Below are positions 5,436 to 38,467 of a DNA stretch of 64,000 nt, in pieces. Where the stretch lies: assembly GCA_964187785.1 (NCBI GenBank), contig OZ076409.1, positions 65,846,001-65,910,000 of the forward strand, written 5' to 3'. This DNA comes from Amphiscolops sp. MND2022 (taxonomy: Eukaryota). The position numbers and the translations under genes were made by a program. How positions within the stretch are numbered: the stretch's first letter is position 1; the number at the start of each line of letters is the position of its first letter. The notes beneath the pieces are model-generated. The model was not told where the DNA came from and did no database searches. It saw only the letters and a list, made by a program, of their open reading frames with translations.

Positions 5436-5633
5436 GGCCTTCAGATAGCTGCCTTGTCTATGTACTCCAAGTAGTACGAAGTAATCATCCACGTCATCAA
5501 AGGTTTCCAGTCATGACACCTTCATGCTCTGACCAGACACCCATCTGTCATCATCGGGCTGATGAAAGTCATCAATTTTGCCAAAAGAGGCGAAGATGCA
5601 GTCTCTATAAATGATCTCTAGAAGTATGATCTT
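5436..5633 (-). ncRNA. U3: U3 snoRNA-like gene, full length (~198 nt)
   Basis: Minus strand reads AAGATCATACTTCTAGAGATCATTTATAGAG (U3 5' box A'/box A pattern), then CCCGATGATGA (box C'), GAGCATGA (box B), TGATGACG (box C) and ATCTGA (box D) with a terminal stem. A candidate PSE lies at -50. Confidence 0.75.
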
Positions 5634-6973: not shown

Positions 6974-7169
6974 ACGTGACCAAAAAGTGATACGGCATTA
7001 AGGCCACATGTTTTTCTCATGAACGATAAAAGGCGAAATTGGTATGCATCTTGAGATACACGGTGATAGTTTATTTATCCTGAAACAATGTTTCAGTATA
7101 ACTTGTTCGAAAAATTTTCAGTCTATTGTCAATGAATTTCCAATTTCATTTGTTCAAAAAGTAAAGTTC

Positions 7170-7676
7170 TGTTGTAAACCGGTGTTTTGGTTACTTAGTA
7201 CTCGCTTTCTAACCTAAGCAATAAGTCTCAAAAAGTGTTACGAAAAGGAAGATAAATTAAAACTGGAGGTTTACAGTAAGTAGAATTTTGTTAAGTCCTG
7301 CAAATCGCTGACTTGTAAAATTTATAATGTTCTGTCAATTTTGGGACTCTTTGTCCTTTCAATTTTGGGGGATTTTCAGAAAGCAAGAGAGAAGGAAAAT
7401 TGAGAGAAGAGAAAAGAGTTGTTGCTTTCTCAGTGTTCCGCGTTGGAATTGGTACCTGTATTTTTCTTTCCAGCTCAGGACAGTTCTACTGTCGCGTGGC
7501 TTTTTCCTATTGGCTGAGCATTAAAGGAATTTGGGAATTCCAATTTCCTTTTAGCGCGTTGCTATTCGCTTAGAAAATAAAATGCTCTAATAATTCCGCT
7601 TTGGAAATTATTATGTCTCTGAGTCAATTTCCTCTATTGGGAAAATGAACTAAATTAGAAATAGCGCATTGCTACA
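7170..7676 (-). repeat. 3' LTR
   Basis: TGTTG...CTACA. About 5 substitutions versus 18967-19473 by eye. Confidence 0.95.
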
Positions 7677-7889: not shown

Positions 7890-9449
7890 TCAATTATTCC
7901 TTCCAGTTGGCACTTGCTTTGAATTTATGGGCCAGGGTAATCGAGTACATTTATTCTTCCACTCGGGGTCTTTGTCAAAATTGTATGCAATGGGATAGTA
8001 GACTGTTGAAAGTCGGGTTTTGACATTTCCTCGTTTTACGTTAAAAATGGAGTACTTTTCGTATTGTTGCCAATCCCAGTGATCAGCGTGGGTTAGCAGG
8101 GCGTGTAAGCATTTTTCCAGCTTTTCATACTGTTTTGCATCTACTGCCTGGATCAATTGAATAGCCTCGGCTCGTTGAATGTCGATTTCGACTCTCATTG
8201 TCTGCAGTTGTTTGACCAGCTTGTCAATTTCGGTTTGGTCCTTTAATTTAGTGTCCTTTTTATCAAGAATTTCCTTGAATCGTTTATTTGCCACATCGAA
8301 GGCATCAAGTTTCTCCTTTAGGAGGATGTTTGTCTTGTTTGATTCTAAAAGTTCACTTTGAAGTGACTCCGCTTTGGAGGTCGCTTCTTCAATTTGGCTT
8401 TTCAGTTCCTTATTCTCATCGAAAAGGTCTGATGTTACTCTTTCGGAGATTTCTAACTTGAATTCAGCTCGATTGGCACTCTCTTTAGCCATTGCTCGTG
8501 ACCGATTGGCAGAGCAGAGAGCATTCTTCAAATTGGCTAGTTCAATGTTCAGGCTGCGATTTTGTTGTTCAAATTCGGCAATTGCGAATTCGGTTTTCCA
8601 AAGAGCAGCGGTAAGATTGGTATCAGGTGTATCGGTCCACTCTTCATTCCCAGTTTGTGTAGTCGCATTGCCTGTGGATCTAGTATTGGATGGAATATGG
8701 GGATTATCGGCGGACACTTCCCTGAAGGAGGATGTACTATCTGACGAACTGATTGTACTTGTATTATCGTTGAAAAGAGGGTTTGGATCGTCAGGGAACG
8801 CGGTGATAACACCAAAGGGGGCCTTTATCATGGAGTCAAGTTGATGATTATAAACTACATACTTCCTTTCTTCAGGAAGACGGTCTTTTAACCTCCATTG
8901 GTTCATGTCCTTCGGAAGAGTAACTTTTATGGCTGGGCAATTGTCGGGGGGAATAACAATAGAACAATTCAACTTTTTGTTGACAATTTCAATTCCTGTT
9001 TTTGGCGTGGCAAGGAACCATTCATTATGGTCCTTCCGTATACCATACTTTAGGAATTTGATGAATTTGGGGTCGTCAGTGTCCACATTATTTTCGCGGG
9101 ATTTTTGGATTTCAAGCCTTTCTTTAAGGCTTGGAAACCAATTTTTTTCTTTGGGTAACCCATCGTCGAGTCTCATTGACACGCACGAGGGGCCTTTAAT
9201 TTTCCCATCACCGAGTCTCTTTGACAGGCGGTTAGGGTCGAAATTCACATTATTTTCGAATTTAGTAGCTTTTCTTGGCCAATTTGGCTCAGGGTCGGTA
9301 GAGGCTAATCGCTTGTTAGCCTGGTTGTGATGTTTTTGAAAACAGGGTTTAACCCGTTTTGTTTTCCGGGACCTAAAGGTTAAATTAGAAGGACGCAGGT
9401 CATCAGGGATGAAACCTTCAGGCTCGAATAGGTCGATAGCATCAGACAT
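7890..9449 (-). CDS. Retroelement ORF4, 519 aa, long coiled coil, function unknown
   Basis: Uninterrupted ATG-started ORF between env and the 3' LTR, with a heptad-rich region at aa ~285-445. TATATAA lies on the minus strand at 9570-9576, upstream. Confidence 0.8.
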   Translation of the reverse strand: MSDAIDLFEPEGFIPDDLRPSNLTFRSRKTKRVKPCFQKHHNQANKRLASTDPEPNWPRKATKFENNVNFDPNRLSKRLGDGKIKGPSCVSMRLDDGLPKEKNWFPSLKERLEIQKSRENNVDTDDPKFIKFLKYGIRKDHNEWFLATPKTGIEIVNKKLNCSIVIPPDNCPAIKVTLPKDMNQWRLKDRLPEERKYVVYNHQLDSMIKAPFGVITAFPDDPNPLFNDNTSTISSSDSTSSFREVSADNPHIPSNTRSTGNATTQTGNEEWTDTPDTNLTAALWKTEFAIAEFEQQNRSLNIELANLKNALCSANRSRAMAKESANRAEFKLEISERVTSDLFDENKELKSQIEEATSKAESLQSELLESNKTNILLKEKLDAFDVANKRFKEILDKKDTKLKDQTEIDKLVKQLQTMRVEIDIQRAEAIQLIQAVDAKQYEKLEKCLHALLTHADHWDWQQYEKYSIFNVKRGNVKTRLSTVYYPIAYNFDKDPEWKNKCTRLPWPINSKQVPTGRNN

Positions 9450-9721: not shown

Positions 9722-12076
9722 TTATGGTGGGGGTAATGGAGCATTTCCATTACTGTTGTTATTTGAGGTACTAGGAGCAATTTCATTGACAGTAGTCGGA
9801 GTATTTCCAGAACTGTTATTGCCATTGTTATTTTGTAAAAAGGTATTTAATGTACTAGGAGCATTTCCTGTTTGATTTAATACATTTGAGTCAGCTCTTT
9901 GTCTTTCATTAAGAGTAGAACCAATCGCAATCGGATTGTTCAAGAGATGTACTTGAGGATACAAAAGAGTCGGATTTTCTTCGTACATTGGTGCAGCTAT
10001 AGGTCTATTGCCTGCAGGGTTCTGCGAGAAACCATTTGAAATCCTTTTATTTTCCTCATTTTCGTACATTGGAGTCTGAAGTGAGAGAACAAATAAATTA
10101 AAAGTTGCGCCTAACATAGTTCTGACAAAACCAAAAGTGGCACCAGAAACTTTTCGAATTTCAAGTCCTCGGAGGACAATGACAACAACATCAATAACGA
10201 ACTTTACCAAAAGGAAACAAGCAAAAAAGTTTCCTAAACATTGGATAATATATCCCAATTCGCCAAAAGTTTCCTTGAATTTATCGACGAAAAAAGAAGG
10301 CGTCAACAAGTGATCCAACAGAAGTCTATCATTTAGACTCAAAAGACGTTCCAAGTTTCCCGGTTCGGAAATTCGAACTGAGTTACCTCGAGTCAAAATA
10401 GTCCGAGTAAGCTTCTTCAATAATGTATCAGAAGCAGAGTTGTGGATTACATTATCCCAAAAATTTTTCATTTGATTTGGGGTGTACATTCCAGCACGCC
10501 TGGTGTCGAAAGTTGGAAACTGAGTAATATGTCCAAGTTCAGTTGGCTTGAACAACAAAGGTTTATTGAAAGGCATGGGCTCAGGTAAAAGTTGGTACCA
10601 GGAATTGTCATTCTCGAGATCAAGTTGAAACACATTTGTGTAATCTCCCAAACAGGGTATCTCGGATGCAAAATCATAAGTCTGACGGGTGATAGGATCT
10701 ACAAATTTCGTAGACCGTTCAAACATGATCGGGATTCGATCATAACATTTATCAAGCACTTTCAAGGGCGATAAAAACTTCGGACAATGGTATAACCATG
10801 CGACAGTTCCATCGGTGTCAAGGAACATAGACCTGTTTCCAGTTAACATGTAACCGGCAAGTCTTGTGTTTTGCATTGCTAACATTAGAATAGTTAACAT
10901 TTGAGTTCGTTCGAGTTCGCATTGGCTCTGCAGAAGTGTCATTTCAGAATGCCTCAATTGCTTCGCATTGAAGTACATTATATAGTCTAACTTTGTTCCC
11001 AAGTGCAATTCATAATCAATTTCATCCGCGCCGACGGTATGCCAAGGCTGTGCACCAATCCATTGGCCATTTGATTTGCTGAAAGATAATGACGAATAAG
11101 AGACCTGGCTAGAGTTGCCAATGGAAAATTGGTAGGCGTTAAAAGCATGTTCTTTAGTTCGTAGTTCTCCACCTGGCATTGCGAAACCTCCTTGGTAAGT
11201 CACAAATAGACTCTCAAAATTTGTTTTGAACAATCGTTCAGGTTTCCCACATAGCTCATAGCTTTCAGGGAAGACTTTGATTTTGAGGTTCATTCCTTTG
11301 CCAGTCTCATTATATTCGCTGATTAGGAAAAATTGGTTTTCGTTTCTGTTCGTTGACAATGGATACTTAAGCATTTTTGCTTCCTGAGTGAGGATTTTTG
11401 TCATCACGCAGTTTTCGGGAGTATCCCACGTGTAAGCGAATGGGTCTAAAGTAGTGGTCTCGCAACCACCCTCCATTAAAAGACATGGCAATTTTTGTTT
11501 ATTTGGATTGGAAACCTCTTTGGTTCCGTAATCGAATGTCAAATTCACACGTTGCATGAACGTCTCGAAGGTATAGTGCTGTACTTGACCACTTGAGCAA
11601 TGAATGGTTGTGCGGACTGATTGTCCATCATTGAAATTCGATTGTTTCTTTGTATCGAATTCAATTGGGGCATCGAAGTTTTCGCTAAAAGACGAAATTT
11701 TAATTTTGTTCGTCTTTGATGCCTGTCGGCACATTTCAGGGGTAACGATGAGGTCATACGTTATACTATTTTGAGTATGAACGTAGGACGAATGCGAAAA
11801 CATTCCACAATTGTAGCGGAAGACATGGGCCTTGACAGAACACATTGTTGCTGCCAGATCAGTCCGATAGTTCTTCTGATAAAGTGTGATAGTAGCCGGG
11901 GTGACATACAAGTTTTCTGGTGTGATCTTGCAGTCTGCTACCTTGTTCAGGGAGTACATTCGATTGTCTTGCATTTTTGTGCAATCATAATGAGATACAA
12001 ACAAGTTCTTTGACACATTGTCAAAGTCATCACTTGCACAAGAAAAAGGAAAAAGGAAAAGAATAAAGTAAAACAT
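9722..12076 (-). CDS. env: Envelope glycoprotein, chuvirus-like / class III fusogen candidate
   Basis: Signal-peptide-like MFYFILFLFPFSCA from ATG 12076 (the frame is open from 12175). Cys-rich ectodomain with HYDC, QCELER, CYDRIPI and FVDPITR, NxS/T sequons, and a C-terminal hydrophobic segment LGNFFACFLLVKFVIDVVVIVL. Confidence 0.8.
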   Translation of the reverse strand: MFYFILFLFPFSCASDDFDNVSKNLFVSHYDCTKMQDNRMYSLNKVADCKITPENLYVTPATITLYQKNYRTDLAATMCSVKAHVFRYNCGMFSHSSYVHTQNSITYDLIVTPEMCRQASKTNKIKISSFSENFDAPIEFDTKKQSNFNDGQSVRTTIHCSSGQVQHYTFETFMQRVNLTFDYGTKEVSNPNKQKLPCLLMEGGCETTTLDPFAYTWDTPENCVMTKILTQEAKMLKYPLSTNRNENQFFLISEYNETGKGMNLKIKVFPESYELCGKPERLFKTNFESLFVTYQGGFAMPGGELRTKEHAFNAYQFSIGNSSQVSYSSLSFSKSNGQWIGAQPWHTVGADEIDYELHLGTKLDYIMYFNAKQLRHSEMTLLQSQCELERTQMLTILMLAMQNTRLAGYMLTGNRSMFLDTDGTVAWLYHCPKFLSPLKVLDKCYDRIPIMFERSTKFVDPITRQTYDFASEIPCLGDYTNVFQLDLENDNSWYQLLPEPMPFNKPLLFKPTELGHITQFPTFDTRRAGMYTPNQMKNFWDNVIHNSASDTLLKKLTRTILTRGNSVRISEPGNLERLLSLNDRLLLDHLLTPSFFVDKFKETFGELGYIIQCLGNFFACFLLVKFVIDVVVIVLRGLEIRKVSGATFGFVRTMLGATFNLFVLSLQTPMYENEENKRISNGFSQNPAGNRPIAAPMYEENPTLLYPQVHLLNNPIAIGSTLNERQRADSNVLNQTGNAPSTLNTFLQNNNGNNSSGNTPTTVNEIAPSTSNNNSNGNAPLPPP

Positions 12077-12187
12077 CTTGTATAAATAGAGATAGAAACA
12101 GTAGAAAGATATACAAATGCGCTTTGCATAGGATTTGTTTGGAATGACTTGGCGAGAGAGAGTAGAAAAAGACAAATGATAATAATA

Positions 12188-15100
12188 TTAGAAATAAGGC
12201 TTTCCGTACCACTCTCTAGGAATGTTTCGTAACGTTCCTGTATTTCGTGAGCGTGGAGCAGCGGCAGTACTAGTTGAAGGAATATTGCGGGGTGAAGGAC
12301 TAGGTGTGGTTGGCTGACTAGTTATTGCTGGCGATTCTCCTTGAAATGAAATAGGAGTCTGAGGAGATGACTGAGGGATGCCAGAGTCGGGTGAGCTCGC
12401 TAAGAAAGTCGGTGTCGAATGAGCGGAGCCGCATTTAGCAGGCGAACTATAAGTCGTGTTCATCCTGGATGGACCAGGTGTGTCGGGAAATATAGGTAAG
12501 TATTCTTGTACGTGCTGTCGTTCAGCAAGCGTTTCAATTGGTTTGTTCAATTCGGAGAGTCGATTCTTTGCATACTCGTTGTAAAAATGTTCGGTTCTGT
12601 CGTCGTTGACAGGCTTTTCGTAATTGGACAACAATGTCGGTAAGTCATTATTACGAGGGAAAAATTCAACGAGATGATTACGATGAACGACATGAATCCT
12701 CGTTGGATCCGAATCGAGCGCGACTTCGTAGTTCACTTTCGTGATCACTTTAGTTACAGTGTACGGTCCACTTCGGAGCTCGCACAGTTTTTGTGATTTC
12801 CCGAATGGGACTTGATGATTTTCGAGTAGTACTTTTTGTCCAACACGTAATGGTTTAGCAAGTTTGTACTTGTTTCGGTACGGCAGAGATCGATGATTCG
12901 CTTTACGAACCTTTGTATATACTTTTCTGTATATGTTTTTGAATTGTGTTTCTCTGTGTAACAAATCCAATGAACACTTTGACGTCAGTAAGGAGTCGAT
13001 GCAAGAATGTTTCGTGTCTTTATTCAGGTGTGAGTGGTCAGGTAAAGACTGACAGAATTCGGATTGACACAAATCATTGTCGTCTCTCCCTAGACCTAAT
13101 TTCAACGAAATTGGAATTTGTGGTTTAAATCCGAAAACAACTTCGTAGGGGGTTGTTCCTGTACTGGCGTTCACTGAAGTGTTATGAGCGAAGGCGAACT
13201 GAGGAGCCAGCTTGGCCCAATTATTTCCTGCTTCGGAAAGATAGCATCGAAAATATCGACTGAGGTGTTTGTTTTGAATTTCAACCTTGCCGTTAGTCTA
13301 AGGAGACCATTTAGTTCTTGGGGCATGCGTTATGCCTAAATCCAAGAGAAAGGTTGAGAAATCGGTGCTCATGAACGATGTTCCTCTATCATATACAAGT
13401 TTTTGAGGAATACCAAACGAAGTAATGAAAGAAGTCATGGCTTCAATGGTATCACTTGCATCAGTCGACTTGACTGGGTAAACTTGTATAAATCGTGAGA
13501 ATGCGTCAATCACAACCAAACAGTGATGTTTCCCGTCGCTCATCGGATTCAGAGGTCCTTTGTGGTCGATGTGAACAGTGTGAAAGGGATAAGGAATTTC
13601 TTCTCCCCATTTTTCATTTGGAGCGGTGTTTTGATCCTTTCTGACTTGTTTATTTTTTTGGCATATTAGGCAGCTCTTCGTTAGAGTCCGCACCCATTTA
13701 TACATACCAGGCCAATAGAAAAATCTTTTCAGAGACAAAAGTGTCTTTTCACATCCGGGATGTCCTGAAAGTCGATGGTCGTGTGCAACATTGAAAGCTT
13801 CAATGAAACAGTTGCGAGGCAAACATATTTGTCGTGATGAATGCTTGCTAGTTTTACAAACAAGATGGGTTTCTTCATCGATGAACAATTTTTCAAATTG
13901 ATTTGAGTAGCCAAGTAATCCCTTGCATTGTCTTGACTCGACATCTTTTGACGGCACTTTGCCTTTAATTATCCATGATTTAACAGTGCTCAGGACTGGG
14001 TCATCCTGTTGGTTTGCCAAAATATTGTTTAAGTCTAGATTATCGGTAACGAGTTTCAATGGTTGTAGTGAGTCTTGAATGGTGAAAATGGAGAGGATGA
14101 AAGGAACATCTTCTTTAGATGCATTTACAACCTCTGTGTTCAATAGAGGATCTTCGTCAGAAGCCTCATTGTCACTATTGTCGGTTTCGGAGTCAATTTC
14201 GGAATAATGATTTTCCTGAACTTCGGCTTCCACAACCATTGGTGGGGTTTGCCATTTACGTCGAATGTTGATGTCCTTACCTTCACGGAAGGAATCAGAA
14301 ACATCAAAGAGCGCTTTCGGAGAGTTTGGATCGTATACCGTACAAATAAGATCTGTACCATCATTTTTCAGGTGAAGTTTCTTTGTTTCACCCAAGTGAG
14401 TGCAAACAATTGGGTAGAAATCATCGTTGGCGCTTTCAGCAGGGCTGTTGTGGTCTATCAGATACTGAACTTCGTGTCCACTTTGGCTGAAGAACTTTAT
14501 ATCTTTTGGAATTTCTTTGTGAAGCAATTGGTGCCCGTTGAGATCTTTCAACGACACATTTCTGCTTAGCAAATCTGGAAACGCTAAATTCTTTCCAGGG
14601 GTCCAAATGATTTGCAAATTAGTGAACTGAGTGATAATCACTTGGTAGCGGAAGAATCTATGAGATAATCTTCCTTTGCGTGCCCATAGATACAGGAGGG
14701 GCTTGTGATCACAGAATACCTTGATGGGATGCCGAGATCCAATTATGAAATGCTCATACGTTTGTAGAGCAGAAATGATTCCGCACAGTTCTCGATGTAG
14801 CGTTGACATCTTTTGTTCATCCTTTGTAAAGACTCGCGAATTGAAGGAAACTATACGTTTCCCGGAAGGAAAATCTTGAATTAAGATTGATCCCGTACCA
14901 ATACTGGAGGAGTCGACATGGATGTGGAACGGATACTTTGGGTTTGGTACAGCTAAGATGGTTTCTTTGCTGATTCTATTTTTTATGTCTTAGAACAAGT
15001 TCTCATGCTCTTTTGTCCATTTGAATGGAGTGTCATCTCTCAGAAGTTCGTAGAAAGGTTTCGAATCTACATGTAAATTTTTGATGAAGGTGCTGTAGAA

Positions 15101-17110
15101 ACCTAAACTTCCTAAGATGCGCATTACATCTCTTTTGTTCTCAGGGCTTTTCAGGTTTTTCAAATCTTGTACTTTTTTGGCTACTGGCTGGATTCCTTTG
15201 TCGGAGACAATGTGTCCAAGAAACTGAACTTTCCTCAAGAACAGTTTTGTTTTGTTCGGTGCAGCTTTCAGACCTGATGATCTCAAGCACTTGAAGTATG
15301 AATCCAAATTATTCCACATTTCTTGTTTGGTTTTTGCCTGTAAGATAACATCATCAATATATGTTATCACTTGTTTCTTGGCTATCATTTCAGCGAAATG
15401 AATAGTCATTATCCGACTGAAGAAGTTTGGTAGTCCGCAAAGACCATAGAATCCTCGTTCGAACATGTACTGTTTTCCACCAACAATAAAGCTTGTCAAC
15501 TTCTTCGTATCCTCGGTGAGGGGTACTTGGTTATAGGCGGAAGCTAAATCACTCGTTGTGTAATAAACTCCATCAAGTCGTGTCAGTAACATTTGTACTG
15601 GTTCAAGGGGCCATGAGTAGTTAGTCAAGTCAGTGATTGAGTTAAGATAACGTGCGTCAATCACAAGCTTCACGGTATCTCCTTTTGGTAAAATGATGAT
15701 AGGGTTTGTGAATAGGGAACCCATTTCCACATCATTTCCCATTTCTCGAATGATTCCAGCTTGTTGCAGTTCATTCAGAAGAATTTCAAGTCGGTCTCTG
15801 TAGTGCAGAGGGACTTTTGAGGGCCTTTGTTTTCGCAATTCGGCGTTTTTCTTCAATTGTACATGAAATGCTTGTGTGATTTTTCCAACATCATAAGTAA
15901 ATTTTGAAAACACGTCATTGTTTTCAACTAAAACTCGGAGAAGATGTTGTATTTCACGGTCATTTATATCGGATTCAGAAAAGTCAATTTTTTCTAAAAA
16001 GTTGCGTTCGGCGGGACTAAACTCGGCGTAAAATTCATCGTCGAGTTGTTTCCTTTTAATATCGGAAGCAGTTTTGGGCATTTTCGGTTGTAATGATTTC
16101 ACCTCATTGGAGAAATCAGTAGCCAGTTCATTTTGCGAAATAGCGCTTTCGGCCATTTGTTTCCGTGAATCAATTTCCGTTAAGGAATAAATATACGGTT
16201 CGGTCGAACAAACGTGTAAATCCTTGTTCCATTGAGACTCAGAAGTTTTGAGATACTCAATGAAAGCGACATTGTCAACGACACTCATCAATTGCGAGGT
16301 CTCTTGGACGCTGTCGAGCAATGTGTATCCAAGAATTCCTTTACGAATAGTAATACTATTCGGGTTCGGATTGTTCAGCATTAAAGGATATTTCGACTCG
16401 TCTTGTGAGCAATACACGTGATACGTGTAAATGCCAGTATCTAAAATGTCTTGGTGTAAACGGAAACTTGTTCCCTGTTTGAACAAATGTTTATCTTCAT
16501 CTCTAGCAATTAAACTCAAAACTCGGGTCGAATACGGTGCAATTGTAATGTCTTGAGTCAATTCTACTGAATTAACCTGGGAGAAGTAGGGAAAAGGCTT
16601 GTCTAAATAAGGTGACAGTTTAACACATTTGCCGGGGAAGACCGTTAAAATTAGCATTGGATTTCTCAAGTTAATGAATTCACCAAAATTTGCCAAAAAA
16701 TCCATTCCAAGAATGTTCATTCTCGCCTCGGGGGAATCAGACACATAAACAGTGTGTTCGATCACACAAGAATATTCTACGTCAAACGCAGACTGAATAA
16801 TAGTTTTCCCTTTCATGGGCATTGCGTGTCCATTAGCAGCTAAAGGCGATTTCTCGAGAGGCGTTACAACTAAAGGCTGAATTTTGTTAATTTCAGTGAA
16901 TGTCTCACGGTTGATAATGGAGCACGTTGCGCCAGTATCTATGAGAAATTGAGTGCTGAGGCCATCATTTTTATTTTTGTCTCCGACGGCGTATTGAAAT
17001 AATTCTATATAAAAATGTTGGCCGGACGTTCCAGCAGTTGGAATGTGAGGGGTTTCATTTGATTCCTCACTTTGTTGGTTCGGAGACTTGATTAGTTTAA
17101 AGGATTGCAT
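12188..17110 (-). pseudogene. pol: pol polyprotein (protease, RT, RNase H, integrase) with two in-frame stops
   Basis: ORFs 14990-17110, 13298-14809 and 12188-13174 share one frame. Motifs: DTGA (PR), YIDD (RT), VDSS...FCDHKPL (RH), HHCC, HIDH/YDRG/GKVE (IN) and GPY. Stops are TAA 14990-14992 and TAG 13298-13300. Confidence 0.93.
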
Positions 17111-18195
17111 GACTGCAGAGTGTCATACAAAGAATTCACCTTGTCAGGCTTTGCTTCGAACCGAACAGCTCCAGAGTAGCTGTTACTTCTGCTTCGGTAG
17201 CCATTTGAAACATAAGGACTATTACTTCTGCCTCTTTGGCCGTTGGACCGATTGTCCGATTGTGATGTGTTATTATTCGGAGACTTGGGTCGACTTGGAT
17301 AGTTTTGCGCATATGTTTCTTTTGGTTGGGGAGGAGGTTTTTCCTCGTTTTCTTTCTTCTTTTTCAATGTCCAACAGTACTTGATTGTGTGTCCGGATTT
17401 TTTGCAATAGTTGCAAAATCTAGTAAAGTCTTGTTTCATTTTTGGGTTGTTCGGATCATAGGTAGCATTGATTTGATGATTTTTCACCATGTTGGTGATT
17501 TCATTCAATGTTTTCTCTATGTTAGTGAAACGGGCGTCCATTGTCCCTGTTGAAGTTTGGGAACTTGAAGGTTGCAAGCCGGACATTTCGGCACTCACAA
17601 CTAAACTCATATCTTTATTTATGATAAGAGTCTGTAAAGCGTCCCATGATTTGTTGGGATCTTCAATCATTGCTTGATGGGCTTTCTGTTTAAGACCCGG
17701 GGGCATTAAGCCTCTTATGAAGTAGTCTTTGTACTTCCCAATTCTCTGATTTTCGCATGCTGTGATAGCCTCTTGATTCGCATTTGACGGTGTTGGCCAG
17801 CCTTTGTCTACCAACGTTTTTATTCTGTGGATGTAACTTTTTATGTTTTCATCAGGCTGTCTTTTCAGATTCTCGGCCTCAATTCGGAACCGATATTGCA
17901 TTTTTCTATCCGTAAACCTGTTTATGAATTGTGTTTTCATTTCTTCCCATGCTAACGCAGCGTCTAATGAATCAAACCACTCAGCCGCAGGTCCGCGTAG
18001 AACGGATCCGAAAAGTGCTTTTCTGCGGTCGTCATACACGGTTTGTTGGCCATTTTCATTTGCCGTAGGCCTACTTCCTAAAGAAAAGCTGATTTTCTTT
18101 TCTAATAGACGTATAAAAGCAGTTGGGTCCTCACTTGAATCGATTCCAATGAACTTCTCTAATGCTAAGTCAGGGTACGCTACAGTGTTTGCCAT
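17092..18195 (-). CDS. gag: Gag, 367 aa
   Basis: Retrotransposon capsid-like region (LRGPAAEWF) and CCHC knuckle CNYCKKSGHTIKYC. Confidence 0.93.
   Translation of the reverse strand: MANTVAYPDLALEKFIGIDSSEDPTAFIRLLEKKISFSLGSRPTANENGQQTVYDDRRKALFGSVLRGPAAEWFDSLDAALAWEEMKTQFINRFTDRKMQYRFRIEAENLKRQPDENIKSYIHRIKTLVDKGWPTPSNANQEAITACENQRIGKYKDYFIRGLMPPGLKQKAHQAMIEDPNKSWDALQTLIINKDMSLVVSAEMSGLQPSSSQTSTGTMDARFTNIEKTLNEITNMVKNHQINATYDPNNPKMKQDFTRFCNYCKKSGHTIKYCWTLKKKKENEEKPPPQPKETYAQNYPSRPKSPNNNTSQSDNRSNGQRGRSNSPYVSNGYRSRSNSYSGAVRFEAKPDKVNSLYDTLQSCNPLN
17095..17101 (-). other. -1 ribosomal frameshift slippery site U UUA AAC
   Basis: The gag frame reads CCT TTA AAC TAA, and pol is in the -1 frame. 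Confidence 0.8.
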
Positions 18196-18495: not shown

Positions 18496-18720
18496 GTGCA
18501 ATTTAAGGAACACTCGTGTGTCAGAAATAAATTTCTTCCACGGAACCCGCACAGGCTAATACCGAAGCTAGCGTAAGTGGATACTGTTTAGACTCAGTAC
18601 CAAGAGTTGTGCAATTTAAGGAACACTCGTGTGTCAGAAATAAATTTCTTCCACGGAACCAGCACACGCTAATACCGAAGCTAGCGTAAGTGGATACTGT
18701 TTAGACTCAGTACCAAGAGT
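18496..18720. repeat. 113-bp tandem duplication in the retroelement 5' leader
   Basis: GTGCAATTTAAGGAACAC...CCAAGAGT at 18496 and 18609. Confidence 0.9.
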
Positions 18721-18949: not shown

Positions 18950-18964
18950 GCTCTGGTCGCACCA
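18950..18964 (-). other. Primer binding site TGGTGCGACCAGAGC
   Basis: Begins with TGG, 2 nt after the 5' LTR. The primer tRNA was not identified. Confidence 0.75.
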
Positions 18965-18966
18965 GA

Positions 18967-19473
18967 TGTTGTACACCGGTGTTTTGGTTACTTAGTACTC
19001 GCTTTCTAACCTAAGCATTAAGTCTCAAAAAGTGTTACGAAAAGGAAGATAAATTAAAACTGGAGGTTTACAGTAAGTAGAATTTTGTTAAGTCCTGCAA
19101 ATCGCTGACTTGTAAAATTTATAATGTTCTGTCAATTTTGGGACTCTTTGTCCTTTCAATTTTGGGGGATTTTCAGAAAGCAAGAGAGAAGGAAAATTGA
19201 GAGAAGAGAAAAGAGTTGTTGCTTTCTCAGTGTTCCGCGTTGGAATTGGTACCTGAATTTTTCTTTCCAGCTCAGGACAGTTCTACTGTCGCGTGGATTT
19301 TTCCTACTGGCTGAGCATTAAAGGAATTTGGGAATTCCAATTTCCTTTTAGCGCGTTGCTATTCGCTTAGAAAATAAAATGCTCTAATAATTCCGCTTTG
19401 GAAATTATTATGTCTCTGAGTCAATTTCCTCTATTGGGAAAATGAACTAAATTAGAAATAGCGCATTGCTACA
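18967..19473 (-). repeat. 5' LTR
   Basis: 507-bp near-identical copy of 7170-7676, adjacent to the PBS. Confidence 0.95.
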
Positions 19474-20237
19474 GTTCAGTCTAGTTTGTCAAAAAAATTA
19501 AGGCTCGAACAATAAATTTTCTACAACTTTTCATTCGCCTCGCTTTCAGAAACACTGAATGAGTGTTCATTCAAATAAAGTATTTCAAGTAGTCAAACTG
19601 TTTGTCATTAAATTCCTTAGTTGTTCGAACATACTAAATTATGCGGACAGATTGTATAAAACAGATTATATAAACTAGCATGAGACGGTCAAACATGGAC
19701 GTGTTTGGTCCTTGATTGGGTATTTCGTGTAACTGAGAAAAAAGCAAAGCATTTTTTGTGTCTTTGAACGCTGTGACTTCTCGCACCCAACAACAATTCC
19801 AGAATATATGAGAATTGATCAACTTGTTTAAAATCGAAGAAAAATTGGTTTTCATTGATTTACTTCTGAAATAAAGTTTGAGCGTTTGCCTCTGAAATTG
19901 TAGTGGATGGCCATTTCGTTGGTCGTTGAACTCGCGGAATATTGTAATCGACGAAAAAATTTCACGCAGCACAAAAATTGCATCGAAAAACCAAAAAATT
20001 GTTATGCTTTTTTTCCAAATGAAAGTTTCCTCAGTACCAAAGCACTCAAAACTTGCTTGAAATTTGAGAATTTTTTGAACTTTTGAGAGGCATCATTTCG
20101 TTTTTTTTGAACGTACTTATCATTTCTATTGTCTGGAAATCTCGCTGGATTGTGTCAATGTGGCACTGTAAGTCTGACCCTTAGGGGCATTGAATGTCTG
20201 AAAATCCGAAAAGTTGCAAAGGTCAAATGTTTGGGTG

Positions 20238-22500: not shown

Positions 22501-23230
22501 ACACACTCATCTGTTGTAATTTTCAATTGCACAACTATTCATCATCAACTCTTTATCAACAACAGCAGCTCTTTCTTCAACGCTAACACTTCTATTCAAT
22601 CTTCTACGACTATACAAAATCCCGCAGCAAATGTTAGTATTTTTCTAAGTGAATTTCCATTCCCAATCAACAAAAATAGCAAGCTTCTTTAGTTTTTTTT
22701 CTGTTATAGCATGTCTCAAAACAACAACACCACCACCAGCATCGCCGCCGCCGCCACCAGCATCGCCGCCACCGCCACCACCACCACCAGCATCGCCGCC
22801 ACCACCACCCAGAACTAACCAGAAATGGAAATGTGGGTTATTTATTTGTTCGTTTGCTTACTGGATTGAAAACAAATTCTTATTAAATTTTCACGAGCTG
22901 CAAATCAAACTGTTTTATTCTAGAATCATCAACGCCAATTCGCAGTCGCCTCTGCTTACCACCCCGATCTTTGTTTTGCCGCCGCCCTACGAAGAAGAAG
23001 AAGAAATTTATTCATCGGAGATCTCCCAGGACTCAATGTCCGAGGTATGTTGAAGCAATGTTCATATTTTTGACAGAATTTTTTTTGTTTGCGCCCTTTA
23101 GCAATTGAGAACCTTAACGAAAGTCAAGTTGCACAATCATTGAAAAAAAGGCAACAAAAATAGTTTCCTATTGTAACAACGAATGTACACTAAACCTTCA
23201 GTTCGAAAAAATTTTGTGTGGAAAACATTG

Positions 23231-24464
23231 CTTTTGTGTTGTTTGCGCATTGCCATTGTACAATACAAGTGCATACACGCACGTAGGACTTGTGTAACGA
23301 CCCCGTGGGTGACCGGACAAAATCCGCGTCGCGCGGATTTTTATTTTTTGCTTTTGTCAAGCTCCCCGTGCATTGTGGGAATGTTGTTTTTGTGTTGTTT
23401 GCGCATTGCCAATGTACAATACAAGTGCATACACGCACGTAGGACTTGTGTAACGACCCCGTGGGTGGCCGGACAAAATCCGCGTCGCGCGGATTTTTAT
23501 TTTTTGCTTTTGTCAAGCTCCCCGTGCAATGTGGGAATGTTGTTTTTGTGTTGTTTGCGCATTGCCAATGTACAATACAAGTGCATACACGCACGTAGGA
23601 CTTGTGTAACGACCCCGTGGGTGGCCGGACAAAATCCGCGTCGCGCGGATTTTTATTTTTTGCTTTTGTCAAGCTCCCCGTGCAATGTGGGAGTGTTGTT
23701 TTTGTGTTGTTTGCGCATTGCCAATGTACAATACAAGTGCATACACTCACGTAGGACTTGTGTAACGACCCCGTTGGTGGCCGGACAAAATCCGCGTCGC
23801 GCGGATTTTGATTTTTTGCTTTTGTCAAGCTCCCCGTGCATTGTGGGAATGTTGTTTTTGTGTTGTTTGCGCATTGCCAATGTACAATACAAGTGCATAC
23901 ACGTACGTAGGACTTGTGTAACGACCCCGTGGGTGGCCGGACAAAATCCGCGTCGCGCGGATTTTTATTTTTTGCTTTTGCCAAACTCCCCGTGCATTGT
24001 GGGAATGTTGTTTTTGTGTTGTTTGCGCATTGCCAATGTACAATACAAGTGCATACACGCACGTAGGACTTGTGTAACGACCCCGTGGGTGGCCGGACAA
24101 AATCCGCGTCGCGCGGATTTTTATTTTTTGCTTTTGTCAAGCTCCCCGTGCATTGAGGGAGTGTTGTTTTTGTGTTGTTTGCGCATTGCCAATGTACAAT
24201 ACAAGTGCATACACGCACGTAGGACTTGTGTAACGACCCCGTGGGTGGCCGGACAAAATCCGCGTCGCGCGGATTTTTATTTTTTGCTTTTGCCAAGCTC
24301 CCCGTGCATTGTAGGAATGTTGTTTTTGTGTTGTTTGCGCATTGCCAATGTACAATACAAGTGCATACACGCACGTAGGACTTGTGTAACGACCCCATGG
24401 GTGGCCGGACAAAATCCGCGTCGCGCGGATTTTTATTTTTTGCTTTTGCCAAGCTCCCCGTGCA
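23231..24464. repeat. Tandem array of ~8 x 156 bp inside the Polinton
   Basis: Near-identical units, each with the hairpin AAAATCCGCG-TCG-CGCGGATTTT. The 52-codon periodicity shows in both overlapping ORFs. Confidence 0.95.
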
Positions 24465-24486
24465 ACCAAATGTTTAAACACAAAAA

Positions 24487-24695
24487 GGTCTTGTTGGTGT
24501 CGCGGTCATGGTGATTTGCTAGACATTGTCGCCTGCCTCTTGGGAAGGCAGGGTGATGCTGAAAACATCAACAATCACAGTGGTATCTATTCCAGAAGGT
24601 TGAGCCTCGACCCCCACAGAGGTTCAAACCTTCATCACTGAGAACTCTGCCGACAATGTCCGGCCCCGATCAGTATCCGCTGGACTAACAGGACC
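24487..24695 (+). ncRNA. Candidate structured ncRNA (~210 nt), possibly a Pol III / VA-RNA-like transcript
   Basis: Nested helices 24487-98/24684-95, 24522-31/24651-60, 24532-38/24546-52, 24554-58/24566-70, 24578-84/24634-40 and 24595-608/24619-33. G-U pairs favour the + strand. A-box-like TGGTGTCGCGG and B-box GTTCAAACC. Confidence 0.55.
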
Positions 24696-27039: not shown

Positions 27040-27401
27040 ACGTCTCTTAAAGCTCGATGTTTTGTTGTATATGTGTTTGTTTGTTCTTGCGCGTGCGTTA
27101 AGTTTGACACTTTTTAATTTTGGCCAACTTCTCATTACGTTTCACTTATTGGCTTCTAAATAGGCATTTTTTCATACAGTACTTCGGTTCTCATTTATAC
27201 TCATCAGGCTAACCCCTCTGTGACGTGTTGCGTATACAAGTTTGTTTCCGGACCATTTATATAAATACCTTCTTCATATAATTTATGTTGTTGATTTTGT
27301 TTTTTTTTACTATTTGGAATCTTCATCAATCTTACAGTAGTTTTAATTGCTTCTGTGACACGTTTAATTCTTGTTGCATTGCGTTTGTTGCAGATTATGC
27401 C

Positions 27402-30400
27402 ATGGGGTTCAATCCTGAGCAGTACTATAGTGTAAATCGAATGCCACAAAGACGTAGTCTGTTGCGAGCGGCCAGCAGAGACTATGAAGTGTACTTCACG
27501 GACATTGAAAGTGTGCTGGATCGAATTAAAGAGATTTTCAACCACCTCATCAACAAATTGATATCTGAGATACAGCAAGATCTTCCTGGTCATTCACACA
27601 GAATTCGATTGGTATTGAATGCGCCTACCCTCAACTATCCTATTCATATCCCATTCTCGTCCGTAGCGGATTTCAACGCCGAACTGATTCCCGATGAAAT
27701 TGACAGGGTCGTTAATTCCAATGAGTCATTTGATATTAGCAACAATATCAAAGTCAACGTTTTGAGTGTTTCTTTACCAACAATGGGCGGGAACCGGCTT
27801 GGAGGCATACAGAGCAGGACTGTTCCCGATATCAAGCTCTTCACGAAACAAAAGAAGTCAATAATTGTAATCAAAAGTGACCAGAACGATTGTCTTTTGC
27901 GGGCCATAGCAATTGGCATCAAAGTTAAGGAGCGATCTCCCTGGCCGCCTAGTAAAAGAAAAACGACAAAAAACTTGCACCTAGATCGGGCTTCCGTGCA
28001 AACGCGTGAAATGCAGCATTTGATAACCCTTCTGAAATCTGATCCAAGCATCCCCCAAGACGAATTGCAGACAATTTTGGCTGGTGGTGCTTCCTCGAAA
28101 AGACTTCCCACCTCTGCCTTTGACGACTCCTCTACTGGGTTGCTTCACCATCAGACAGCTCAAACCTCTCCTGCTTATGGTAAACCTCTTGCTCTACAAG
28201 ATTTAGAATTTTTGTCTCAGTCGCAAGTGTTGAAAGACTTTTGTTTATCTGTTTACGATAGCAACTTTATGGGCACTTTCCTTAAATGTTATAATCAGGA
28301 AGCACAGCAGAATATCGACCTTTTGTATGATGCTCAAAACAGACAAGTAGATTTAGTTACCTCAATGAAAGGACTATTCGATGCTCGCCACTACTGTTAC
28401 AGTTGTCACAAGGCCTTTTCCACAGTGAAGCATTTATGCTCTGCCAGTGGTTGTTTGCTGTGTCGGCAGCCTGGCTGTCTCAATAGGACCGGTTTCATCA
28501 ACCATTCGCCGCTCAATTGGACTACCTCGTCCAATGACTTGTCAAAGACCCCTCGCCAGTCACCGGTTTTCCAGTGTGATAGATGCAGGCTAAAGGTACG
28601 AAGCCAAAAGTGTCTGGATTGCCATGTTACCTCTGGGGTGTGTCATTTGTACACTTTGTGCCCTACATGCGACAATACTGTACCTAAGCGAGCTTTCTCC
28701 AATCATATTTGCTCAAAAAAACGCTGTTCTACTTGCTCCGTCCATTACTCATTGTCAGACCGTAAAAACACCTCTTCGCCTTCATCGGAACATCAATGTT
28801 TTGTACAAAAACCGAAGAGATGTATAGAGCGAGAAATACCGAATGGTGATACCAATAACGAATTTCCTGATTGTGAAATATTGGGCGGAGAGAATTATCG
28901 TGAAGAAGTTGAGAAAGAAGATCCGATGACGCAAATCAAACGCAGGAAAATGAGCAACGCTCCAGTCGATGACGATGGTACTGTTACGTCTCGTGACCAG
29001 CCAGCAAACAACTTTGCACGAGCTCCCTCGGATGACAAAATTTGGGTTTTTGACATAGAAACTGACCAGAGTTGTGGCAATGAAGGGCTACATAAACCAA
29101 TTCTACTGGCAGCAGAGTCTTTGACAGGTGATGAAGTTATTTACTGTGGCTACGATTGTATAAACGATTTTTGTGAGGATGTTTTTGCTAGTGTTGAAAG
29201 GGTTCGTCAAACTGAATGGTTTATTGCCCATTTTGGCAGTGGGTTCGATTTCCTACCAATCCTGGAATGGCTCTACAAACAACACAAATATGTTCCCAAA
29301 ATTTTGCTCAGAGGTAACAAGGTTGTGTCAATGCGTGTGGGGAATAAACGATTCATTGACTCTTATCTTTTCATCCCGATACCTTCATCAAATTTTCCCA
29401 CAACGTTCAATCTCAAGGAATTGAAAAAAGGATACTTTCCTCATTTTTTGACATCTAAAGAGGCCCTCTATCCCGCCGCTACTTCAAAGCTGCATAGTTT
29501 ACAAACATGCGAGAAAGGGGAAAACTGCAATCTGCGCAAAATTGTTTCCAACGACTGCAATCACTGTGTAGCTACACAAAGCAATGTTCGCTGCTTCAAT
29601 GCAGGAAATGACCAAGAAGAAGAATGCCAAGAGTTTGCTCTCAAAGAGAGCCAATTTCCACCCGCGTGCCTTTTTGCTTTGAATTCGATGAAAGGACAGC
29701 AAACGGTGAGCACGTTTTTGGAATGGCACTCAGCACAGACCCAGCTTTATAAAGTTAATAAGCTCGTTTACGACTTTCAACAAGAACTCGTGTCGTACTG
29801 TCAGTCAGATGTTAAACTACTCAAAGAGGGTTTTTTGAAGTTTAGAACATTAATCAAGAAAGTGTGCAGCGGAATAGATCCGTTCGAAGTCGCTTGCACA
29901 GCATCAGCATGTAATTACTTTTATAGACAACTATTCATGCCGAAGGACTCCATCGCAATCCTCCCTCAGAACGGTTACACGGGCAATGAGTTAACGTCTT
30001 TCCCAGCTGCCGTTTGGCTGTCGTGGGTGGAACAAGTTGCAAATGATCGGAAGTCAAACGAGTTCAGTATTCGTCTGTATAAATCAGGCGGAGGATTGAA
30101 GCGAGGCAGAGGTAAGGAGCAGACACTTGGATCATTCAATGTAGACGGACTTCTTCTGTACAAACGAACATCTCAATCAAAGAGTACCGCATGTGGGAGT
30201 GTTGTCCAGAAACCACAACTGTCGATAGTTTTGGAGTTTTCTGGATGTTACTTCCACGGGTGTCCTTCTTGTTATACAGACCGAGATGAGGTTAATAAGA
30301 AACGAAATGCTACAACAATGCATGATTTGTACACCACAACAGATATGGACAGACTGGACTGGATATCAGCTCAAATCTCGAACGGCACAGTCTTCACAAC

Positions 30401-32435
30401 AACAGATAACTTACGTTTTGTTGTGCATAGTATATTTTTCATTTGGGAATGTGAGTTTAAAAAACTGTTGGAACTGTCCATATCTGAAGACGAAGAAGGA
30501 ATTGATACAACGTGGACGCATTTGCCGAGGTCAGTAGCAGCAAGACTCAGCAGCTCCCCCTCGAGCATTTCCGATGACATCCAGCAGGTCGAACAAAGTC
30601 GTGTAATACATCAGACCTTACTGTATCGGCTGAGTAACATCAAACTACTGCAACAGATGTCAAATGACAGCATTCGTTACAGTCCGTTACAGCCTCGTGA
30701 CGCTTTTTTTGGAGGAAGAACAGAAAATTTTGTCATGAAGTGGTCTCGACAACTACAGTCTCAGACCTTCAAGTATGTCGATGTTTGTTCGCTGTACCCA
30801 TATGTGAATTCCAGGTCAGTGTACCCTTCAGGGCATCCTGATTTGATTCTGATTGCTACAGAACAGCAACAACAATCGATTGCGCGTAAAGGAAAGGCTC
30901 GGAATAACAGCAACTCTGCCAATGAAAAACCGCCTCAAACCAGTTGGTTTGACGAGGATGTGAATGTAGCTCAAAGTAAAGCTGTGGAGTTTAAATTTTT
31001 GGATCGGGTTGACAGGATTCTTACAATGCCCAGTAACGAACGAGACTCGGGAGGAGATCAATGTGAAGCTGAAAAATCACATTCTCTGCCTCCACCACAG
31101 AGGTTCCGAAAGTTTTCGCAACGAACGCTTTTGGAATTCCCCTTAACTTTTGTTGAATTAAAATTGAAAAACGAGGATTATTTTGGTCTGATAAAATGCC
31201 AAGTACTGCCACCGTCTGATATACATCTACCCATTTTACCATTCAAATTTCAATCGAAACTCTTTTTTCCGCTATGTCGAAGTTGCGTTGAAGAAAGATC
31301 CAGCATGCCTGACAAAAAGAGTGTGGACTTGACATCAAAGAAGTGTGTTCATCGCCAAGTAGAAGAGAGGAGTTTCTGGGGCACATTTGCTACCCCAGAA
31401 GTTAAGCTTGCTTTGGAAAATGGATACCGAGTGATAGATGTAGCAGAGATTTGGAGTTGGTCGAGAGCAAAAAGGTCTGTGACATTGTTCAAAGAATATA
31501 TCGATAACTTTTTGAAAATAAAAATGGAGGCATCTGGTTGGCCAAAAACATGCCGCTGTGAAGAGAAGATGAATTCTGATTCATCGACAGAAATGATATG
31601 CGAGCATAAGAGGCGTTACCTTCAGGAGATGAAGAAGAAAGAAGGCATTTCACTTGACCCTGCGAGGATAGAGAAAAACGAAGGTCTACGCTTTATTGCT
31701 AAAATACTTCTGAACAGCTTCTGGGGTTATCTCGGAATGCGGGATAATATGCCAAAAACGAGGTACGTCAACAACTATCGAGAGGTCGTGGACTATTTCA
31801 CATCGCGAACAAAAAGAGTTACTGATGCGACTCTAGTGGGCGATGATTTGATGCTGCTACAATATCAACTCATTGATGACGCGGCAGACGCTCCGCGGAA
31901 GACAAATGTGATTCTTGCTGCCTTCACAACTGCACATGCTCGCATAATACTTTTCAACAATATGCAGCTGGTGAAAAATCCTAAAAATGTACTCTATTGT
32001 GATACAGACAGTATCATGTATGTCCACGATCAATCTCTGACCGATTCCCCGGATATCTCAATTGGGAGTGGACTGGGCGAAATGACCGACGAACTGCCTC
32101 CTGATGTCTTGATTGACAAGTTTTGGAGTGCAGGGCCAAAGTTTTATTGCTTGTCTGGTCACAACGTTAAAACAGGACTGGAGTATAATATTTTCAAAGT
32201 CAAGGGTGTAACGCTGAATAGGGCTACAGAGAAAACATTCAACCCCGATACCTTCAGAAAACTCGTGCTTGGTGAGACTCATGAATTGCGAAGTCCTTAC
32301 AGTAGTCTGAGTCGTTGTGTTCGAACAGGCCAACTGAAAAACAAGTTTTGTGAAAAACGCGCCCGAGTCACAAGTAACAAACGTGTTTTCAACACAAATT
32401 CCGGCGAATCTACACCGTTTGGTTACGTCGGTTGA
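27402..32435 (+). CDS. polB: Protein-primed family B DNA polymerase
   Basis: Exo I FDIET, Exo II AHFGSGFDF, Exo III YCQSDV, EFSGCYFHGC insert, motif A DVCSLYP, motif B KILLNSFWG, motif C YCDTDS and KVKG. Cys-rich N-terminal region. The frame is open from 27285 and the likely start is ATG 27402. Confidence 0.97.
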   Translation: MGFNPEQYYSVNRMPQRRSLLRAASRDYEVYFTDIESVLDRIKEIFNHLINKLISEIQQDLPGHSHRIRLVLNAPTLNYPIHIPFSSVADFNAELIPDEIDRVVNSNESFDISNNIKVNVLSVSLPTMGGNRLGGIQSRTVPDIKLFTKQKKSIIVIKSDQNDCLLRAIAIGIKVKERSPWPPSKRKTTKNLHLDRASVQTREMQHLITLLKSDPSIPQDELQTILAGGASSKRLPTSAFDDSSTGLLHHQTAQTSPAYGKPLALQDLEFLSQSQVLKDFCLSVYDSNFMGTFLKCYNQEAQQNIDLLYDAQNRQVDLVTSMKGLFDARHYCYSCHKAFSTVKHLCSASGCLLCRQPGCLNRTGFINHSPLNWTTSSNDLSKTPRQSPVFQCDRCRLKVRSQKCLDCHVTSGVCHLYTLCPTCDNTVPKRAFSNHICSKKRCSTCSVHYSLSDRKNTSSPSSEHQCFVQKPKRCIEREIPNGDTNNEFPDCEILGGENYREEVEKEDPMTQIKRRKMSNAPVDDDGTVTSRDQPANNFARAPSDDKIWVFDIETDQSCGNEGLHKPILLAAESLTGDEVIYCGYDCINDFCEDVFASVERVRQTEWFIAHFGSGFDFLPILEWLYKQHKYVPKILLRGNKVVSMRVGNKRFIDSYLFIPIPSSNFPTTFNLKELKKGYFPHFLTSKEALYPAATSKLHSLQTCEKGENCNLRKIVSNDCNHCVATQSNVRCFNAGNDQEEECQEFALKESQFPPACLFALNSMKGQQTVSTFLEWHSAQTQLYKVNKLVYDFQQELVSYCQSDVKLLKEGFLKFRTLIKKVCSGIDPFEVACTASACNYFYRQLFMPKDSIAILPQNGYTGNELTSFPAAVWLSWVEQVANDRKSNEFSIRLYKSGGGLKRGRGKEQTLGSFNVDGLLLYKRTSQSKSTACGSVVQKPQLSIVLEFSGCYFHGCPSCYTDRDEVNKKRNATTMHDLYTTTDMDRLDWISAQISNGTVFTTTDNLRFVVHSIFFIWECEFKKLLELSISEDEEGIDTTWTHLPRSVAARLSSSPSSISDDIQQVEQSRVIHQTLLYRLSNIKLLQQMSNDSIRYSPLQPRDAFFGGRTENFVMKWSRQLQSQTFKYVDVCSLYPYVNSRSVYPSGHPDLILIATEQQQQSIARKGKARNNSNSANEKPPQTSWFDEDVNVAQSKAVEFKFLDRVDRILTMPSNERDSGGDQCEAEKSHSLPPPQRFRKFSQRTLLEFPLTFVELKLKNEDYFGLIKCQVLPPSDIHLPILPFKFQSKLFFPLCRSCVEERSSMPDKKSVDLTSKKCVHRQVEERSFWGTFATPEVKLALENGYRVIDVAEIWSWSRAKRSVTLFKEYIDNFLKIKMEASGWPKTCRCEEKMNSDSSTEMICEHKRRYLQEMKKKEGISLDPARIEKNEGLRFIAKILLNSFWGYLGMRDNMPKTRYVNNYREVVDYFTSRTKRVTDATLVGDDLMLLQYQLIDDAADAPRKTNVILAAFTTAHARIILFNNMQLVKNPKNVLYCDTDSIMYVHDQSLTDSPDISIGSGLGEMTDELPPDVLIDKFWSAGPKFYCLSGHNVKTGLEYNIFKVKGVTLNRATEKTFNPDTFRKLVLGETHELRSPYSSLSRCVRTGQLKNKFCEKRARVTSNKRVFNTNSGESTPFGYVG

Positions 32436-36725: not shown

Positions 36726-36728
36726 CGA

Positions 36729-37849: not shown

Positions 37850-38467
37850 ATGGAAGAATTTGTTTTGATTCCCCTATCTCATTACCTTGAGCTTACTTCA
37901 TCGGTCAGCGATATCAACAGTACTACAGCAGATACTACTTCACGTTTTACGACCCACCAAACACATTATCCAAATGCTCCGAACTCTGAGCCCGATGTAA
38001 CATTTGAAAAACAATCAAACTCCAGTGAAGAGCCGCCCGCCGCTGAAAAAGAATGGCTCCAAGGAATTGTTGAACCTTTACCGGAATCCAAAACAGAGAA
38101 GGAATCTGAAAAAGACCTACAAAAGACACAACATGAATTGTCTATCCGCAGAAAAAGAGTTCAGGGGTTAATAGACCTGATGATATCGACCAGAGGAATA
38201 AGATTCAATAAATCCAATGCTACATTCTCTTTCACGAGTAACAATTTGGCTCATGAAACGCCAACGAGTAGCATCAAAATTCTACAGTTTCTCCGCGATC
38301 TTCAACAGTATCGAAAAAAGGTGCCCCAAGAATACTTTCTTGTTTTGAACATTTTATTCCCCCCAACAAAGGCAATTTCTTTAAAACGAGCCAATGATCT
38401 TGTAATCAATCGCAATTGTCTCAGCTACATCACTAATCAAAACGTTCATACACAGCGAATGCAATGA
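37850..38467 (+). CDS. Polinton hypothetical protein, 205 aa
   Basis: ATG-started ORF (MEEFVLIP) whose stop overlaps the integrase start (ATGA). Confidence 0.7.
   Translation: MEEFVLIPLSHYLELTSSVSDINSTTADTTSRFTTHQTHYPNAPNSEPDVTFEKQSNSSEEPPAAEKEWLQGIVEPLPESKTEKESEKDLQKTQHELSIRRKRVQGLIDLMISTRGIRFNKSNATFSFTSNNLAHETPTSSIKILQFLRDLQQYRKKVPQEYFLVLNILFPPTKAISLKRANDLVINRNCLSYITNQNVHTQRMQ

Follow-up and report, generated by a model that had tools for sequence, protein, structure and literature searches.

Ty3/gypsy 'errantiviruses' with an envelope protein of the HSV/gB type have been described across animals by Chary and Hayashi in eLife (PMC13524379). Searching with chuvirus-like BEL baits, that study found 114 such elements; the chuvirus-like glycoprotein known from mosquito BEL/Pao elements, it reports, occurs next to a gypsy pol as well. 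How the gB-type proteins mediate entry is, according to its authors, not understood. An earlier survey (Dezordi 2023) described no clear glycoprotein capture by Gypsy elements (PMC10084718), and the original prediction for the locus studied here, which noted such captures as reported for BEL/Pao elements, agrees with that survey. LTR elements of bdelloid rotifers are reported to have captured extra ORFs, encoding a GDSL esterase or a DEDDy exonuclease, in place of env (PMC5408684). The iridovirus protein ORF111L is described as a viral TRAF homologue acting on TNF-receptor signalling (PMC3352826).

We analysed a 64,000-nt stretch of the genome of Amphiscolops sp. MND2022 (contig OZ076409.1, positions 65,846,001 to 65,910,000), hereafter the window. 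It contains an env-bearing LTR element with several of the traits by which HSV/gB-type errantiviruses are defined operationally (PMC13524379), namely gag-pol-env, a Ty3/gypsy pol, a gB-type env, LTRs and multiple copies. Following Chary and Hayashi (PMC13524379), the pairing of env with Gypsy is of an already described kind. The env motifs of our family were not found in the parts of that paper and its supplements that were consulted; the supplements may hold no protein sequences, so the family may be in its data set.

Structure of the env-bearing element

The element is 12.3 kb long, lies on the minus strand and has the order gag-pol-env-ORF4, with the following features:

19474..19477: 4-bp target-site duplication (TSD), 5' side, the same 4-mer on both flanks
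18967..19473, minus strand: 5' LTR, 507 bp, TG...CA
18954..18964, minus strand: primer-binding site (PBS) starting with TGG, separated from the LTR by 2 nt and invariant in 13 of 14 copies
18496..18720: 113-bp tandem duplication in the 5' leader, the pair 98% identical
17092..18195, minus strand: gag, 367 aa, Retrotrans_gag at E 8e-7
17095..17101, minus strand: UUUAAAC heptamer, in register at the end of gag
12188..17122, minus strand: pol (PR-RT-RH-IN-SH3) by Pfam domains, broken in the window copy
9722..12076, minus strand: env, predicted class III gB/chuvirus-like fusion glycoprotein, 784 aa, uninterrupted, by PF24664 and fold matches
7890..9449, minus strand: ORF4, accessory gene of 519 aa between env and the 3' LTR
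7170..7676, minus strand: 3' LTR, 507 bp, with only a short purine-rich tract before it
7166..7169: 4-bp TSD, 3' side, matching 4-mer

The two LTRs of the window copy are identical at 502 of 507 bases. Over 11 nt the PBS is complementary to the 3' terminus of a single tRNA-Val(TAC)-like gene of the host, and four neighbouring tRNA-Val genes did not fit; a tRNA-Val(TAC)-like molecule is only a candidate primer. gag and pol overlap by 31 nt, and comparison of the UUUAAAC at the gag end with known slippery sites makes a -1 ribosomal frameshift into pol likely. Due to in-frame stops in pol at 14990-14992 and 13298-13300, the window copy cannot be autonomous. Inspection of ORFs and Pfam domains revealed no viral gene in the element besides env. 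The original prediction had correctly described an element with Gypsy pol and env; the two pol stops and the fourth ORF (7890-9449) had escaped it.

The minus-strand env frame contains no stop from 12187 down to its stop codon at 9722-9724, and the first ATG is at 12076. The interval originally proposed, 9722..12175, is env coding sequence apart from about 100 nt, which belong to the pol-env spacer since the ATG is found only at 12076. The protein begins with a short hydrophobic stretch, judged by eye to be a signal peptide, followed by an ectodomain with 14 cysteines and five N-glycosylation sequons, a hydrophobic (membrane) segment with its maximum at residues 617-635 and, at the C-terminus, a low-complexity tail. 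This arrangement, together with the open frame, bears out the intact signal peptide-ectodomain-TM protein that had been predicted. All six motifs quoted in its favour (HYDC...SLNKVADC, QCELER, GTVAWLYHC, CYDRIPI and FVDPITR) were found in env in the order given, at residues 29, 42, 385, 423, 444 and 458. No furin-type basic site was detected in the 784 residues.

Pol is of the Ty3/Gypsy type

Across its three segments, pol displayed the Pfam order PR-RT-RH-IN, with RT_RNaseH and SH3_Tf2-1 domains present. When the RT was compared with the PDB, the best 2 of 12 matches were Ty3 RT (E 2e-28), followed by foamy virus, caulimovirus and MLV. The Gypsy-type pol reported earlier was confirmed on both counts. 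Grouping of the RT with BEL/Pao had been named as the result that would speak against it; this was looked for and not seen. Identity to six host BEL RTs was only 16-19%, compared with 46-70% to the RTs of the sister env families introduced below. In a tree restricted to host families and host BELs, the six BEL RTs formed a separate clade (support 100) on a very long branch. The BEL markers Peptidase_A17 and DUF1759 were absent from the element, and both were found in a host BEL control. TG...CA LTRs, a short TSD and a TGG-start PBS, features of Ty3/Gypsy (Metaviridae), were all present. From domain and similarity tests, rather than from a tree with named reference elements, we therefore classify the element as Ty3/Gypsy and not BEL/Pao.

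Env resembles class III fusion glycoproteins

A Pfam scan of env returned a single family, PF24664 Monjiviricetes_fusion (E 1.5e-40; 139 bits, cut-off 27), a sequence match far above chance. An AlphaFold monomer model built from an 80-sequence alignment (pLDDT 73.7, pTM 0.41) contained long beta-hairpins and ended in a beta domain, with a central helix at residues 355-399. When this model was compared with PDB folds, all matches listed were herpesvirus gB (best E 2.4e-13). In a viral structure library the top match was the glycoprotein of Tacheng tick virus 4 (E 2.6e-31, 18% identity). Next came the glycoproteins of chu-, xinmo- and qin-related viruses, whose identity to env was 14-18%; herpes gB matched at E 5e-15. 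Tacheng tick virus 4 and the other top viral matches are presumably members of the Chuviridae or Xinmoviridae. Among the Atlas structure matches listed, 8 of 8 were class III families.

Whole-chain TM-scores to gB and chuvirus G were 0.17-0.28 for the leading matches, as expected for a monomer model whose domain packing is uncertain. In view of these low scores and the pTM of 0.41, the class III call depends on local alignments and E-values. Searches of PDB sequences gave no match for the single env sequence and one chance match for the profile, with no fusogen in either, and of 64 pattern matches in an IMG/VR scan none was confirmed. At E <= 0.001 the env profile retrieved 2803 clusters from a set of 50%-identity representatives, indicating that the env family is broad.

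Taken with the PF24664 match, the structural similarity to chu- and xinmo-like glycoproteins and to herpes gB supports the predicted chuvirus-like class III fold. Class I or II fusogens, which would have argued against it, did not appear; the structure matches listed were class III instead. On the model, 'chuvirus-like class III' is a fair label for env, and it points to no specific donor.

The family is young and under purifying selection

Searching the host genome with env gave at least 64 matches, from which 14 further close copies were picked by env score. One of these was unalignable in gag and pol and was left out there, and one had no 5' LTR in the sequence taken. In the 14 copies with both LTRs (window copy included) a 4-bp TSD was found in 13 and a 5-bp TSD in none, and 12 of the 14 LTR pairs were at least 98.6% identical. 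The family is young and has recently spread. Env was uninterrupted in 11 of 15 copies, a fraction biased upward because the copies had been picked as best env matches, and all four ORFs were open in 2 of 14. Continuity of RT and IN is a further errantivirus criterion; the window copy has its two stops, and pol was unbroken in 5 of the 14 alignable copies.

Shared variants were strongly depleted in amino-acid changes relative to singletons. The pN/pS of the env ectodomain was 0.05 for shared variants versus 0.46 for singletons (Fisher p 6e-5), and the corresponding values were 0.07 versus 0.57 in pol and 0.03 versus 0.62 in gag. In the env tail the difference was not significant (0.44 versus 0.95, p 0.26). 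In a sister pair, env dN/dS was 0.023. The comparison across copies that had been proposed as a check thus yielded purifying selection on env, and all four genes (gag, pol, env and ORF4) are under such selection.

Env has diverged together with the RT

A genome search with PF24664 detected further env families, five of which (B to F) were taken for comparison, giving six in this one genome with the window family (A). Each of the five lies behind a Gypsy-type RT with the 46-70% identity noted above, and env identity among the six is 29-64%. RT and env identities were correlated (rho 0.92 and 0.87), the six-family rho of 0.87 being reached in 7 of 720 permutations. Thirteen cysteine columns are conserved across the six env families, two of them lying beyond the sequence taken for one copy. 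Both the RT and the env tree recovered a (B,F),E clade, and A paired with C in the env tree only, the alternative RT node having a support of 64. These sequence comparisons show co-divergence of env with RT and point to long co-inheritance within the lineage; they say nothing of the first source of env.

An accessory region follows env

ORF4 is predicted to comprise one or more small beta-rich domains (residues ~108-211) and a coiled coil (~277-435), according to a low-confidence model. It has no membrane segment and no Pfam family, its relatives giving only weak matches of coiled-coil type. A fold search with the model (pLDDT 58) produced no PDB match at E <= 0.001, and ORF4 had no Atlas match of 0.9 or more. 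Tudor, Agenet and PWWP domains were frequent among the weak fold matches to residues ~108-211, none better than E 0.35; a chromatin-reader-like barrel in this region is possible and unproven. A homologue search returned 112 proteins, all unnamed.

ORF4 occurs as two alleles with 82% DNA identity, a dS of about 1 and a dN/dS of 0.08. The alleles are carried by copies that are 96-99% identical outside ORF4, env included (window versus L028, L030, L032, L036, L038 and L040), which suggests that ORF4 may be exchanged as a cassette by recombination between near-identical elements. Judged by its sequence evolution, ORF4 is a real gene.

Among the 518 ORFs of the window and all loci, a profile of ORF4 relatives matched only the ORF4 copies, the counterpart in family C and, in families B, E and F, small ORFs that follow env (E 3e-7 to 7e-3). 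The reverse profile search recovered family C at E 5e-6 and ORF4 weakly, and hhalign gave E 3.6e-4 with a probability of 37%. The most distant env family, D, had no match to the ORF4-relatives profile. By profile similarity, ORF4 shares a domain with the post-env ORFs of the three sister families B, E and F.

In these three families the small ORF is followed by a further one encoding a coiled coil and a TRAF/MATH (TRAF-C) domain (Pfam E 4e-10 to 8e-23). The intronless coiled-coil plus TRAF-C (MATH) ORFs of the sister env-bearing Gypsy families are located as follows:

L041:4021-4791, minus strand
L045:7580-8398, plus strand
L066:2817-3863, plus strand
L068:3097-4119, plus strand

The best PDB match of the sister-family TRAF ORF was TRAF5 (E 1.6e-14), and no RING domain was detected in these ORFs. 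The family B TRAF ORF lies between env and the 3' LTR, displays a dN/dS of 0.057 and, among the matches listed, had 34 at 98% identity or more. ORF4 itself was considered as a TRAF homologue and rejected (hhalign E 0.62).

Sister families differed in further respects. Family B has LTRs of ~2.1 kb, 100% identical in one copy (L041:1907-3994 and L041:8012-9722), and a pol-env gap of ~3 kb with ORFs of 145-210 aa, the 210-aa ORF being without a Pfam match. In family D, env is preceded by an open frame of 453 aa (L061:7790-9148) and followed by ORFs of 509 and 308 aa (L062:2856-4382 and L062:5005-5928); none of the three resembles ORF4 or has a Pfam match.

Other elements in the window

A Polinton/Maverick-like element of ~22 kb occupies window positions 22167-44123 and is bounded by 92-bp terminal inverted repeats of 90% identity. 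It contains:

27282-32435: protein-primed DNA polymerase B
36661-37788: A32-type ATPase
38437-39495: rve integrase
41198-42571: 457-aa ORF without a Pfam match, which may be a capsid protein

Inside it lies a 156-bp tandem array (23228-24619) with mostly 97-99% identical units. The window also includes a long microsatellite of dinucleotide units and several inverted repeat copies at scattered positions (58506-59333; 5437-5633 / 48018-48214; 46604-47048, 48543-48987 / 53496-53940).

Origin and role of env

The original prediction had suggested that this Gypsy lineage made its own envelope capture. As a recent event, a capture is unsupported: viral glycoproteins are only 14-18% identical to env and come from several virus families with no single donor, and env tracks the RT over six families. 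Env is an old component of the lineage and belongs to the HSV/gB type known from earlier work; it is not a recent acquisition from a chuvirus. A more distant version, in which the Gypsy lineage took env from a chu-/xinmo-like negative-strand RNA virus in the distant past, in the common ancestor of the six families and separately from the gB-type errantiviruses of other animals, would be compatible with the same enveloped-particle mechanism, and we consider it rather unlikely. It can draw on the structural comparison, in which negative-strand virus glycoproteins (E 1e-31 to 1e-25) are the nearest neighbours, well ahead of herpes gB (E 5e-15). However, the low and scattered identity to viral proteins applies to this version too, homologous glycoproteins adjoining a gypsy pol have been described in insects and crustaceans (PMC13524379), and the env family is broad (2803 clusters at E <= 0.001). 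Chuvirus glycoprotein EVEs are reported to lie often near Gypsy fragments without true capture (PMC10084718), which could make env a chance insertion, a non-retroviral endogenous chuvirus fragment inside one Gypsy copy. Given that env occupies an identical place between paired LTRs in each of the 14 further copies, is under selection, occurs in six RT-defined families and is accompanied by no other viral gene, such an accident is extremely improbable. A non-retroviral Chuviridae EVE was ruled out, with identity to chuvirus G of at most 18% and env moving with the LTR element.

As to what env does, we think it highly probable that Gag and Gag-Pol particles of this family bud with a class III Env trimer and then enter cells nearby, probably those of the germline. 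Infection-like spread of this kind is what we infer from the observed layout, fold family, selection and recent spread; budding, fusion, the tissue route and the accessory roles would take the following form. Gag-Pol would be made by the -1 frameshift and Env from a subgenomic or spliced RNA. Env would enter the ER via its N-terminal signal, trimerise and be anchored near residue 625. By analogy with other class III proteins, it would fuse membranes through fusion loops on its beta-hairpins without furin cleavage. Enveloped particles would then transfer the element between cells, probably out of the soma into the germline, a route that would parallel that of Drosophila gypsy, which uses a different fusogen. 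ORF4 would act as a soluble coiled-coil accessory protein co-inherited with env. The competing account keeps Env for an intracellular role, in particle budding into the ER or in superinfection exclusion, and leaves spread to ordinary retrotransposition. Purifying selection is compatible with this, as it shows that Env has some function and not which one. The retention of signal, full ectodomain, conserved cysteines and anchor across families only 30% identical speaks against it, and we judge it improbable compared with entry by enveloped particles.

Implications of the accessory region

The env-Gypsy pairing alone adds one more genome to a published pattern and is of modest consequence. Young, selected families nevertheless offer a setting for asking how a gB-like protein acting alone, with no gH/gL, brings about entry. 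Less expected is the accessory region. A conserved fourth gene travels with env in five families, and TRAF-C is found in three. The env-Gypsy pairing is known, and the accessory region after env was not found in print. The words TRAF, MATH, 'accessory' and 'coiled' are absent from the main text of Chary and Hayashi (PMC13524379), and the text consulted of the rotifer study makes no mention of TRAF or MATH (PMC5408684). No report of TRAF/MATH in an LTR retrotransposon was found in the literature searched, which mostly excluded subscription journals.

A TRAF protein that lacks its RING domain is generally known to act as a dominant negative. The most likely role of the RING-less TRAF-C protein of the sister families would be to bind receptors or adaptors that recruit TRAFs and so change TNF/Toll-type signalling, a proposal that we make with low confidence. 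If so, Ty3/Gypsy elements would have evolved immune-modulating genes as complex retroviruses and large DNA viruses have. More tentatively, and with the doubts outweighing the case for it, the families may represent an old, complex retrovirus-like Ty3/Gypsy lineage of invertebrates that combines a class III env with a post-env region devoted to accessory genes, among them a captured RING-less TRAF serving as a dominant-negative TNF/Toll decoy. If true, these would be infectious retroelements with their own immune antagonists, in parallel to the accessory genes of complex vertebrate retroviruses.

Comparison with known systems

The glycoproteins of Jingchuvirales and Xinmoviridae (PF24664) are the best profile and fold matches of env at 14-18% identity, and herpesvirus gB matches its fold at only 8-12% identity. 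The genes N, L and gH/gL of these viruses are absent from the element, whose glycoprotein is retroelement-borne. Dezordi 2020 (PMC7642597) reportedly described Anakin, BEL/Pao elements with a chuvirus glycoprotein. Anakin likewise places a chuvirus-like class III glycoprotein in an LTR element; its pol is BEL/Pao, whereas that of the present element is Gypsy.

Closest are the errantiviruses described by Chary and Hayashi (PMC13524379), which share gag-pol-env, a Ty3/gypsy pol, LTRs and a class III env with signal and anchor. As reported there, the furin site is not always kept, multiple copies are near-identical and env diverges with pol, all as seen here. That screen required a pol-env gap no longer than 1 kb in animals other than insects, extended by hand for some groups (PMC13524379); in sister families here the gap is ~3 kb. 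Bdelloid rotifer LTR elements are alike in that a retroelement has picked up host-like extra ORFs, which in our families come after an intact env (PMC5408684). ORF111L is likewise a viral TRAF, but that of a large DNA virus (PMC3352826), whereas the TRAF ORFs described here are carried by Gypsy elements.
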